From Candidatus Omnitrophota bacterium (lineage in GTDB: Bacteria; Omnitrophota; Gorgyraeia; Gygaellales; Profunditerraquicolaceae): a DNA stretch of 60,685 nucleotides. A program made the translations under genes and the position numbers. How positions within the stretch are numbered: position 1 is the stretch's first letter; every line of letters starts with the position of its first letter. The notes beneath the pieces are model-generated. The model did not search any database. It was not told the DNA's origin and saw only the letters and a list, made by a program, of their open reading frames with translations. The stretch is from contig JBAZGD010000004.1 of NCBI GenBank assembly GCA_041653055.1, forward strand, positions 1 through 60,685, given 5' to 3'. This document shows positions 4,261 through 43,274 of the stretch, piece after piece.

Positions 4261-5404
4261 TAAAAAGTTATTCTGGATATTTGCCTTAAGCAGCTGCGTA
4301 TATTTTACTCAGGGTATAGAGGCGCTTCCTTCCCAGGGTTTATTCTACTACCTTAAAGAAATACTTCATTTTTCCCCGCAGAAGATAATGGTAATCTCCA
4401 GCATACCTGTTTTGGCATGGCTGATTAAGCCGTTGATCGGGTATGTAATTGATAATTTCTTTACCAAGAAAAAGTGGATCTTTATATCTTTAGGCTTGGA
4501 TATATTGCTGGTTTTAGCCTTAGGGTTGATAGAGATGCCGCTTATTCTGCTGATTATTATAATTGCGCTAAATTCTGCCGATTCTGCTTTCCGCGACGTA
4601 GCAGTGGATGGGGTGATGTGCGTTGAAGGGAAGAAATATAATATTACCGGAAAGATCCAGAGCGTACAGTGGATTGCTTTATCTCTGGCCGGGATTATAA
4701 CGGGAGTAGGCGGAGGCTACCTTGCCCAGATTTGGGGTTACCGGGGGGCCTTTCTCTGCCTGGTGCCTATATATATTATTGTAACATTACCGGCGTATTT
4801 TTACCGCGAGACTATCGTAAGAGGCGCTAAAGAAAGAGGGCATTTAGGCCAGGACCTGAAAGCGCTTTTTGGCGATAAATATCTTTTGCTGGTGGCGCTA
4901 TTTATATTCCTCTATAAATATTCGCCGTCTTTTGGCACCCCGCTATTTTTTATCCAGAGGGATATTTTCAACTGGGGCAAGGTCTGGATAGGGTTTTTAA
5001 GCACCTTGGGCACGGTCTGCGGGATCATCGGCTCAATTTTTTATTACCGGTACAGCCAGAAGATAGATATAAAAAAGTGGCTCTACGCCTCGGTTTTCCT
5101 GGGGGCAATCACTACCATGAGCTACCTTTATTATACTCCGGTTACTGCGGTGATTTATGATGTCGTTTACAGTTTTATCGGGATGTTTATATTTATTATG
5201 GTGATGGATTTTATGGCGCGTAGTTCTATCAAAGGGCTCGAGGCCACTTCTTTTGCCCTTTTATGCAGCGTCAGTAACCTGGCGCTTGTCTTAAGTAACC
5301 TTTCCGGCGCCTATCTTTTGCCTAAGATTGGCCTGAGCTGGCTTATTATTATTTCCAGCCTTACCAGCTTTCTCTGTTTGCCGTTGATTCGCAAGATAAA
5401 ATAG
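4226..5404 (+). CDS. MFS transporter, probably BT1 folate/biopterin-like (start uncertain: GTG 4226 or GTG 4247)
   Basis: About 12 hydrophobic segments; W-x-IKPL-x-G-x-x-x-D and DVAVDG motifs resemble the BT1 family. The subfamily call is inference. Confidence 0.7.
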   Translation: MSQNLSQVPLNNKKLFWIFALSSCVYFTQGIEALPSQGLFYYLKEILHFSPQKIMVISSIPVLAWLIKPLIGYVIDNFFTKKKWIFISLGLDILLVLALGLIEMPLILLIIIIALNSADSAFRDVAVDGVMCVEGKKYNITGKIQSVQWIALSLAGIITGVGGGYLAQIWGYRGAFLCLVPIYIIVTLPAYFYRETIVRGAKERGHLGQDLKALFGDKYLLLVALFIFLYKYSPSFGTPLFFIQRDIFNWGKVWIGFLSTLGTVCGIIGSIFYYRYSQKIDIKKWLYASVFLGAITTMSYLYYTPVTAVIYDVVYSFIGMFIFIMVMDFMARSSIKGLEATSFALLCSVSNLALVLSNLSGAYLLPKIGLSWLIIISSLTSFLCLPLIRKIK

Positions 5405-5440
5405 GGGACAGTCCCAAATAAAGGGGACGGTCCTATTTTT
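5404..5440. repeat. Family A left arm of the RAYT element, preceded by the palindrome GGGGACAGTCCC
   Basis: AAATAAAGGGGACGGTCCTATTTTT at 5416-5440 is identical to 7493-7517 and inverted relative to 6172-6192. Confidence 0.9.
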
Positions 5441-5492
5441 TTTGTTAGATTTCTTTTCTCCCTGCGTCTATTAAGGTAGAAGGGAGGGAATT

Positions 5493-6179
5493 ATGCCTAG
5501 GACAAGGAGAATAATACCTATTGAGGAAGCAGCTTTGCATATAGTTTGTAGAGGGAATAACCGGCAGAGGATTTTTTATGATGACGGAGATAAATTAAAG
5601 TATTACGCTTTATTATGTGAACTGAAACATGAAAACGGGGTAGATATATTAAATTACTGCATAATGGATAACCATGTCCATTCTATATCATACCTGAGAT
5701 CGGAAAATAATTTATCCAAATTCATGAAGCAAGTTAACTTGAGTTATTTTCACTACTATAAAAAGAAATACGGATATTGCGGGCACCTTTGGCAGAATAG
5801 ATTCCGAAGTAATATTATTGAATATGACCGGTATTTGCTGCAATGCGGAAAATATATTGAACTTAATCCTGTAAGGGCGGGCATGGTAAACTCTCCGGGC
5901 GAATATCTATTTTCTAGCTATAATTATTACTCAAACGGAAAGCCGGATAGCCTTGTGACAACTAGCCCGGTTTATCGGGGACTATCTGACTCTCCTAGCG
6001 CAAGGCAGAAGAATTATATTAATTTTGTTATCAATGGCAGTATAATAAACTCAACTGTGATTGCGAAAAATCTGTATATAGGCAGCCCAGAGTTTATTGC
6101 TATGTATCAGGAGCGCTTTAAGATTAAGAATCCACGCATAGTTAAGGGAAGGCCGCCAAAGGAGAGCCAGGAAAAATAG
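5493..6179 (+). CDS. REP-associated tyrosine transposase (RAYT; IS200/IS605-related Y1 HUH superfamily)
   Basis: HIVCRGNNRQRIF, HUH motif MDNHVH, LWQNRF, catalytic-Tyr region YIELNPVRAG. The stop codon TAG lies inside the right arm. Confidence 0.9.
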   Translation: MPRTRRIIPIEEAALHIVCRGNNRQRIFYDDGDKLKYYALLCELKHENGVDILNYCIMDNHVHSISYLRSENNLSKFMKQVNLSYFHYYKKKYGYCGHLWQNRFRSNIIEYDRYLLQCGKYIELNPVRAGMVNSPGEYLFSSYNYYSNGKPDSLVTTSPVYRGLSDSPSARQKNYINFVINGSIINSTVIAKNLYIGSPEFIAMYQERFKIKNPRIVKGRPPKESQEK

Positions 6180-41564: not shown

Positions 41565-41636
41565 GGGCCCATAGCTCAGTGGTAGAGCAGGTGACTCATA
41601 ATCACTTGGTCGGAGGTCCGAATCCTTCTGGGCCCA
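41565..41636 (+). tRNA. tRNA-Ile2 (anticodon CAT, lysidine type; elongator Met not excluded); CCA not encoded
   Basis: Acceptor GGGCCCA/TGGGCCC, D-arm AGCTCAGTGGTAGAGC, anticodon arm GGTGA-CTCATAA-TCACT closely resembling ileX-type tRNAs. T-loop TCCGAAT. Confidence 0.9.
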
Positions 41637-41644
41637 ATAAATCA

Positions 41645-41718
41645 GGGCATTTAGCTCAGTTGGTTAGAGCGCTACATTCACATTGTAGAGGCCAGAGGTC
41701 CGAGTCCTCTAATGCCCA
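41645..41718 (+). tRNA. tRNA-Val (anticodon CAC); CCA not encoded
   Basis: Acceptor GGGCATT/AATGCCC, anticodon arm CTACA-TTCACAT-TGTAG, T-arm AGAGG-TCCGAGT-CCTCT. Confidence 0.92.
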
Positions 41719-42478: not shown

Positions 42479-42958
42479 ATGAAGGAATTAGAGATATATA
42501 TTGACGGGGCCTCTAAGGGAAATCCCGGGCCAAGCGGGATAGGGGTGGTAATCTGCCATTGCGGATGCGTTATAAAGAATGTATCCGCTTATATTGGTAA
42601 TGCTACGAATAATGTCGCCGAGTACACGGCGCTGATTTACGCTTTAAAAGAGGCCATGGGCTTGAAAGCGGATTATTTAATTGTAAAGACGGACAGCCAG
42701 CTTCTTGCCCGCCAGTTAAATAAGGTATATAAGGTCAGGAATGCAAATATATCGGGGCTTTATAACCAGTCTCTGGGGCTTTTGGGTTTATTCAAGAAGT
42801 TTTCAATTCACAGTATCCCGCGCGAGGAAAATAAGGGTGCCGATAAATTAGCAACCCTGGCGGTAAATAGGTTCTTTCGTAAAAATGAGCAGGCGGAATG
42901 TGGCTGCTCGCCGGGTAAACCGGCGGGAGGAAAGTCCGGGCTCCAAAGGAAGGCGTAA
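42479..42958 (+). CDS. rnhA: Ribonuclease HI (3' end overlaps rnpB)
   Basis: IYIDGASKGNPG, TNNVAEY, TDSQL, REENK-x-AD-x-LA. Confidence 0.93.
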   Translation: MKELEIYIDGASKGNPGPSGIGVVICHCGCVIKNVSAYIGNATNNVAEYTALIYALKEAMGLKADYLIVKTDSQLLARQLNKVYKVRNANISGLYNQSLGLLGLFKKFSIHSIPREENKGADKLATLAVNRFFRKNEQAECGCSPGKPAGGKSGLQRKA

Positions 42959-43232
42959 CAGGCTAATACCTGTCCCCGTTGGTATTTAACGGGAGGATAA
43001 GAGCCACAGAGACGATTAAAGGTGAAACGAGGCAATCTCTGCGCGGAGCAAGGCGAATAGGAGATGAGTCTGCCGCAAGGCAGCCAGGTGCTTTTCCGGC
43101 GCCTTATCAATCTCGGGTGTTAAGCTGCTAGAATCCCGGGGCCTTTAAGGCCCCGGGATCTCAGAGGAATAGCCACTTTAGATGCGTTTATACTCGCAAT
43201 CGAGACAGAACCCGGCTTATTTTGCCTGCTCA
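42886..43232 (+). ncRNA. rnpB: RNase P RNA
   Basis: P1 TGAGCAGGC/GCCTGCTCA; P4 halves GAGGAAAGTCC (42927-42937) and ACAGAACCCGGCTTAT (43205-43220); GGAGCAAG, CGGG...GCTGCT. Confidence 0.97.
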
Positions 43233-43274
43233 CTTAAATGATAATACAACGATACAAAAAAAGGGAGGATCAAG

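Follow-up and report, generated by a model that had tools for sequence, protein, structure and literature searches.

Genome-encoded C55 in tRNA genes of an Omnitrophota clade without TruB

Two neighboring tRNA genes with C55 in the T-loop

The window analyzed here is a stretch of 60,685 nucleotides (contig JBAZGD010000004.1, positions 1 to 60,685) from the MAG of a Candidatus Omnitrophota bacterium, designated G000 (956 kb in 41 contigs, 44% G+C, 87% complete). It contains a pair of tRNA genes in which the T-loop position normally occupied by U55 is encoded as C, close to the gene for RNase P RNA. The features relevant to this report are as follows.

41565 to 41636 (discriminator base 41637), plus strand: tRNA with anticodon CAT, most likely tRNA-Ile2 of the lysidine type (ARAGORN; 71.4 bits with RF00005)
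41617 to 41623, plus strand: T-loop TCCGAAT of the CAT tRNA, with C55 at 41618 and G57 at 41620 (sequence; covariance-model alignment)
41645 to 41718, plus strand: tRNA-Val(CAC) (ARAGORN; 70.0 bits with RF00005)
41699 to 41705, plus strand: T-loop TCCGAGT of tRNA-Val(CAC), with C55 at 41700 and G57 at 41702 (sequence; covariance-model alignment; 55-57 coupling)
42886 to 43236, plus strand: class A RNase P RNA (151 bits), beside the two tRNA genes

Both cloverleafs exceed the gathering score of the Rfam tRNA model RF00005, which is 29, and both have anticodon loops of 7 nt according to RF00005 and ARAGORN. The raw sequence, ARAGORN, and the Rfam model agree on the register of the two tRNAs, with T-arms of GGAGG-TCCGAAT-CCTTC for the CAT tRNA and AGAGG-TCCGAGT-CCTCT for tRNA-Val(CAC). 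When these T-arms (GGUCCGAAUCC and GGUCCGAGUCC) are aligned to the model consensus GGUUCgAaUCC, a C sits opposite U55 in each, so that position 55, normally U, corresponds to the C at 41618 in the first gene and the C at 41700 in the second. The rest of the elbow is canonical in both genes (T54, C56, A58, and the G53-C61 pair), and the D-loops, AGTGGTA in the CAT tRNA and AGTTGGTTA in tRNA-Val(CAC), keep G18-G19. The T-loop sequences, coordinates, and C55 assignments of the initial annotation were therefore exact, and its description of a cloverleaf that is otherwise normal, G18-G19 included, agrees with the model scores and the canonical elbow bases.

The CAT gene is most likely tRNA-Ile2 of the lysidine type rather than tRNA-Met, because its best full-length matches in Escherichia coli are annotated as tRNA-Ile, it lacks initiator features, and a congener encodes initiator tRNA-Met and elongator tRNA-Met as genes of their own. 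An initiator identity was ruled out by the G1-C72 pair and by an anticodon stem without a run of three consecutive G-C pairs.

ARAGORN identified 41 tRNA genes in G000, 1 of which reads TTT, 4 TCC, and the remainder TTC. The four TCC calls represent three genes, since tRNA-Cys had been counted twice: the last 127 nt of contig C20 are the first 127 nt of contig C5, so that these contig ends are adjacent and both tRNA-Cys calls come from one locus. Tabulating position 55 across the genome, as the initial annotation had proposed, thus gave C55 in 3 of 40 distinct tRNA genes: the Ile2-type CAU gene, Val-CAC, and the sole tRNA-Cys. A lineage-wide change striking all tRNAs, one of the explanations originally offered, does not fit a genome in which 36 of 41 gene calls keep TTC, or a congener (G001) without any C55. 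What the lineage shares is that it tolerates C55; U55 has not been replaced throughout. The T-loop of the tmRNA of G000 keeps TTC.

Loss of truB and position 55 across the order

U55, or its modified form Psi55, is described as conserved across every domain of life, with TruB as the synthase in bacteria (PMC7912444). Substrates of TruB carry the T-arm 53-GUUYRANYC-61 (PMC7912444), and the T-arms of the two focal genes, GUCCGAAUC and GUCCGAGUC, lack the U55 that this motif demands.

Six-frame searches with PF01509 (TruB_N domain), which scored in 14 of 14 control genomes, produced no TruB match in G000, in its 10 congeners, or in most of their family, f1, whereas six sister families within the order gave intact TruB. 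A tblastn search of G000 with TruB proteins from the same order likewise had no match, and PF01509 matched none of 50 further Omnitrophota genomes, close relatives reached via their yebC loci. Across the phylum, truB was present in 252 of 301 sampled Omnitrophota genomes; of the 49 without it, 20 were listed, all of them belonging to f1, and 29 were not. Three more families of the same order (f2, f3, and f9) also lack truB.

Gene order records the event. The sister families share the arrangement rbfA-nrnA(DHH)-truB-ribF-mraZ, and the corresponding locus on contig C10 of G000 has no truB:

27421 to 27083: rbfA
27063 to 26107: nrnA
26107 to 25202: ribF, abutting nrnA
25044 to 24670: mraZ

Because nrnA and ribF abut at the point where sister families have truB, the gene was cleanly lost from this locus (C10:24670-27421). 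Those members of f1 that do contain truB have it at another locus, adjoining an epimerase gene, and the gene had therefore moved before it was lost. Contamination was considered as the source of the truB fragment in one such genome, G019; the fragment is probably authentic, since the epimerase gene beside it is the one that also adjoins truB in another truB-containing f1 member. The suggestion in the initial annotation that truB might be missing along with a rewired elbow is thus borne out by domain search, tblastn, and synteny, for G000 and for a large surrounding clade in which the 18/55 and 19/56 contacts vary.

Other enzymes that could modify the T-loop were sought in the same genomes. A crude motif screen and family searches of the 87% complete G000 for a non-orthologous Psi55 synthase found, as other pseudouridine synthases, only TruA and one RluA-family enzyme, and the motif screen of this genome gave no TruD or Pus10 motif. 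Family searches of 41 genomes of the order found TrmFO in none, the only matches being partial ones from MnmG, and found the TrmA/RlmD family to be essentially absent. The m5U54 modification is thus probably absent from the whole order, truB-containing members included. Because truB has been lost in an order without TrmA and TrmFO, the T-loop in the truB-less clade is predicted to be unmodified, probably UUC rather than T-Psi-C.

Two further elbow changes were seen in these genomes. The elongator tRNA-Met(CAT) of G000 (contig C16:12825-12899) has the T-loop TTTAAAT and the D-loop AGCCTGATA (AGCCCGATA in G020), and an A19-U56 pair replaces the near-invariant G19-C56; the same replacement occurs at L120, L145, L196, L217, L237, and L278. 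This form of tRNA-Met is conserved in f1, in truB-containing and truB-less members alike, and in f2, and is absent from G031 and G026. In the truB-less genome G034, of family f2, the sole tRNA-Phe (L279:10988-11063) has the T-loop TGCAAGT, with G55, and the D-loop AGGTAGTA, with A18 for G18, a matched replacement of the G18-U55 contact.

The specificity domain of RNase P reads the tRNA elbow, and in the RNase P RNA of the window an 81-nt block of the model, which we take to be P12-P14 of that domain, is reduced to 15 nt. A link between truB and the shortened RNA was rejected, as relatives differ widely in RNase P score and length whether or not they have truB, with no clean association.

The relationship between truB and position 55 was assessed with tRNA censuses of six truB-less genomes and of 3 complete and 9 partial truB-containing genomes, using RF00005 for the coordinates. 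The number of tRNAs with a base other than U55 in each was as follows.

G000, truB-less: 3 of 40
G001, truB-less congener: 0 of 42
G020, truB-less: 2 of 42 (Arg-TCT, Phe)
G213, truB-less: 5 of 46 (Arg-TCT, Asp, Gly-CCC, Leu-TAA, Phe)
G026, family f3, truB-less: 1 of 41 (Asp, C55)
G034, family f2, truB-less: 1 of 47 (Phe, G55 with A18)
G031, truB-containing: 0 of 46
G295, truB-containing: 0 of 44
G298, family f1, truB-containing: 1 of 32 (Phe)
Nine other truB-containing genomes: 0 of 52 tRNAs sampled

Within the order, non-U55 tRNAs total 12 of 258 in truB-less genomes versus 1 of 174 in truB-containing genomes, an enrichment of about 8-fold (Fisher p=0.019, a value that ignores phylogeny). At the focal pair, C55 occurs in one or both tRNAs in 12 of 20 truB-less genomes, compared to 1 of 10 truB-containing genomes (p=0.017, again ignoring phylogeny). 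There are exceptions in both directions: two truB-containing members of f1 have one C55 tRNA each (CAT in G019, Phe in G298), and the truB-less G001 has none. Nearly all C55 cases lie within f1, and the link between non-U55 and the loss of truB, a correlation that clusters on the phylogeny, is no more than suggestive. A census extended to the whole phylum with the DNA pattern GGTCCGANYCC was abandoned, as its background in GC-richer genomes equaled that of the reversed-pattern control and 20 sampled matches from family f20 were not tRNAs.

The strongest competing explanation is that C55 is sporadically tolerated for reasons unrelated to truB, by phylogenetic coincidence or because weak selection in cells with small genomes, which may depend on a host, produced each of the two independently. 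The C55 tRNAs of the truB-containing G019 and G298 favor it, and so does the C55 T-arm of tRNA-Phe, which is identical in G298 and in the truB-less G020 and G213, indicating that this C55 predates truB loss or is independent of it. The A19-U56 tRNA-Met, found on both sides of the truB divide in f1, points the same way. Lactiplantibacillus plantarum presumably has truB, so C55 can occur in a truB-containing organism; its tRNA-Gly is a natural case of C55 (PMC10464925). Against coincidence stand the enrichment given above, the occurrence of position-55 deviants in the separate truB-less families f2 and f3, and a count of 0 of 142 non-U55 tRNAs from truB-containing genomes in other families of the order. 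On balance, we regard an unrelated origin as unlikely.

Preferred here, with a probability of roughly 0.7, is the reading that the C55 tRNA genes are genuine and functional and that the mature tRNAs most likely keep C55, in a truB-less lineage with a relaxed T-loop. Under this reading, we infer a causal link between truB loss and C55 tolerance, acting in either direction or via shared relaxed selection on elbow stability; the two may be joint outcomes of one such relaxation.

Exchange at position 55 and its coupling with G57

The CAT/Val-CAC pair is syntenic with a zinc-ribbon gene, rnhA, RNase P RNA, and yebC. A genome search recovered the pair from 30 relatives, yebC loci gave it from 63 Omnitrophota MAGs, and its synteny is conserved in more than 60 genomes. 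Using a tree of five flanking proteins to count changes, position 55 changed state at least 10 times in the CAT tRNA (C in 14 of 52 genomes) and at least 14 times in Val-CAC (C in 20 of 63 genomes), a rate equal to that of the fastest stem and loop positions in these tRNAs. On the same tree, T54, C56, A58, G53, and C61 did not change at all. Every change at position 55 was between U and C, and zero transversions in at least 24 events has a probability of about 2e-4 if the position is fully unconstrained and transversions make up a 30% share. Position 55 thus acts like an exchangeable pyrimidine.

Exchange at this position is coupled to position 57. In Val-CAC, C55 occurs with G57 in 20 of 20 cases, and U55 occurs with 19 G57 and 24 A57 (Fisher p=1e-5). 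Among phylogenetically independent Val-CAC pairs that differ at position 55, position 57 changes with it in the same direction in 6 to 7 and in the opposite direction in 0 (median sign-test p=0.03). Across f1, G57 accompanies all C55 tRNAs seen. The rule is not absolute, with a single C55/A57 exception anywhere, the tRNA-Asp of G026 in family f3, which reads TCCAAAT. As read from the sequences, the acceptance of C55 in Val-CAC only with G57 points to a compensated G18/C55/G57 elbow, not decay. Sole isoacceptor genes also encode C55 (Cys in G000, Phe and Asp in relatives), and this, together with the epistasis between 55 and 57, argues that C55 tRNAs are used and under selection.

Combining these observations, the events in this clade may be outlined as follows. 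A clade of Omnitrophota has lost TruB, the pseudouridine-55 synthase, in an order without TrmA or TrmFO, leaving T-loops that are probably unmodified UUC instead of T-Psi-C. Within this clade position 55 is no longer an invariant U; either pyrimidine is found there, with repeated exchanges of U and C across tRNAs and genomes, while the rest of the T-loop (T54, C56, A58, and G53-C61) and G18-G19 remain fixed. C55 is still constrained, being tolerated in Val-CAC only beside G57. We infer in addition that C55 persists in the RNA and that the altered elbow works.

A second alternative holds that gene-encoded C55 is deaminated to U55 after transcription, by an unrecognized enzyme or by TadA acting on a second substrate, making C and T interchangeable in the gene. 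Editing of this kind has precedents: CDAT8 carries out C-to-U editing of tRNA C8 in Methanopyrus kandleri, and TrcP performs C-to-Psi32 tRNA editing in Vibrio cholerae. Interchangeable alleles would be expected to produce the near-neutral flicker between U and C seen here, and the G57 beside C55 could serve as an enzyme recognition element. The initial annotation had put forward such an editing system and proposed a search for truB and for orphan cytidine deaminases; that search, besides finding truB absent, showed only TadA (153 aa) and RibD, each an equivalog-level match, as CDA-fold proteins of G000. Neither is fused to a THUMP or PUA domain, motif and family searches of G000 revealed no deaminase with such a fusion, and no dedicated or clade-specific CDA-fold deaminase of the CDAT8/TrcP type was found in G000 by family searches or in the relatives compared. 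Relatives with and without truB or C55 have the same deaminase set plus a dCMP-deaminase-like protein.

Several further observations weigh against editing. The G55/A18 tRNA-Phe of a truB-less relative could not be repaired by deamination, and neither it nor the C55/A57 tRNA-Asp is explained by an editing enzyme. Without TruB there is no obvious reason for U55 to be restored, and most tRNAs simply encode U55. Editing therefore goes unsupported, and we consider it improbable.

Within that alternative, TadA would be the economical candidate, editing C55 as a second site. The T-arm (G53-U54-C55-C56-G57-A58-A59) resembles the anticodon loop of tRNA-Arg(ACG) (C-U-A-C-G-G-A), the two having U-x-C-G-R-A in common around the target. 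Wild-type TadA is specific for adenosine, which counts against this role, and we rate it as very improbable. On this reading, the G57 observed beside C55 would correspond to the G36 that TadA needs. Were it true, C55 editing by a TadA-type enzyme would be the first T-loop editing system and would explain the free alternation of C and T in the genes.

Two observations concern deaminase genes themselves. On contig C32 of G000 (5036-5577), tadA extends up to or into the gene of its substrate, tRNA-Arg(ACG), which lies at 5502-5577 on the same strand. In the congener G006 (C8:85178-85483), a CDA-type deaminase domain lies in an open frame of 3720 aa that may be a polymorphic toxin.

The remaining explanation, that the genes are products of sequencing or assembly error or are tRNA pseudogenes, has a negligible probability: G000 is a fragmented MAG (41 contigs, 87% complete), but identical C55 bases occur in independent assemblies from different projects, and the genes have intact cloverleafs, high covariance-model scores, conserved synteny, a sole tRNA-Cys among them, and coupled 55-57 changes indicating ongoing selection. 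TCC was found in near-identical and more distant MAGs, including two whose YebC is 98-99% identical and in which both tRNAs read TCC, and the same TCC in the syntenic pair of independent MAGs excludes sequencing error. This upholds the view in the initial annotation that independent errors were unlikely, and multi-assembly recurrence refutes an artifact for practical purposes. Pseudogenes would be recognizable by degraded structure and an intact redundant isodecoder; the structures are intact, and C55 is in the only Cys gene.

With C55 tRNAs read as genuine genes whose products keep C55, the clade has consequences beyond its own biology. A natural group of more than 60 sampled genomes lives without TruB and m5U54 enzymes, against the textbook near-universality of U55/Psi55 and TruB. 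The clade serves as a mutational scan of the elbow carried out by nature, in which a pyrimidine at 55 coupled to G57 and the matched changes A18/G55 and A19/U56 could separate indispensable contacts from those kept mainly for the modification machinery or its chaperone function. These tRNAs are concrete variants for studies of folding, aminoacylation, RNase P processing, and ribosome binding. They also bear on the needs of a minimal translation apparatus and on tRNA gene finders and covariance models, which penalize C55 tRNAs.

Comparison with known tRNA elbows

Recurrent, G57-coupled C55 in many tRNA species, spread over a large clade that lacks both TruB and the m5U54 enzymes, is new to our knowledge, and we know of no earlier description. 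The literature searched held nothing on tRNA modification in Omnitrophota. It contained other instances of U55C only as an engineered negative control, leaving the tRNA-Gly of L. plantarum as the one natural precedent found.

Among tRNA editing systems, CDAT8 and TrcP offer a parallel, in that C is likewise encoded at a site at which U is structurally expected. Those systems use a dedicated CDA-domain enzyme fused to a THUMP or Pus domain, and G000 was found to have none.

Compared to the canonical bacterial elbow, T54-Psi55-C56 as made by TrmA or TrmFO together with TruB (PMC7912444), the tRNAs of G000 are alike in cloverleaf, G18-G19, T54, C56, R57, A58, and G53-C61. They differ in that three tRNA species of G000 have C55, the genome lacks truB, the order lacks trmFO and trmA, and the loop is probably an unmodified U-U/C-C.

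Loss of truB is documented in hemoplasmas, Mycoplasma genitalium, and Mycoplasma pneumoniae (PMC4014445). These reduced Mollicutes resemble the Omnitrophota clade as small-genome bacteria that have lost a near-universal Psi55 synthase. In contrast to them, the Omnitrophota belong to another phylum of uncultured environmental organisms, and no connection between truB loss and position-55 variation was reported for the Mollicutes (PMC4014445).

Eroded elbows are known from animal mitochondrial tRNAs (PMC7912444, PMC9427863), which share with the Omnitrophota tRNAs a relaxation of D-loop/T-loop contacts consistent with weak selection. Unlike the mitochondrial case, erosion in the Omnitrophota is minimal and compensated: no arm is lost, and the changes affect single positions and are coupled between 55 and 57, 18 and 55, and 19 and 56.

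The natural precedent is L. plantarum, whose tRNA-Gly isoacceptors (UCC and CCC) are aminoacylated normally and have a natural C55 that was termed unique by the authors of the study (PMC10464925). As in G000, a genome-encoded C55 is accompanied by G57 in an otherwise normal bacterial tRNA, and in L. plantarum C55U and G57A mutants were charged like the wild type (PMC10464925). That example involves a single amino-acid family of a single organism, whereas in the Omnitrophota C55 extends to Ile2, Val, Cys, Phe, Asp, Arg, Gly, and Leu tRNAs in many genomes and goes together with the loss of truB.
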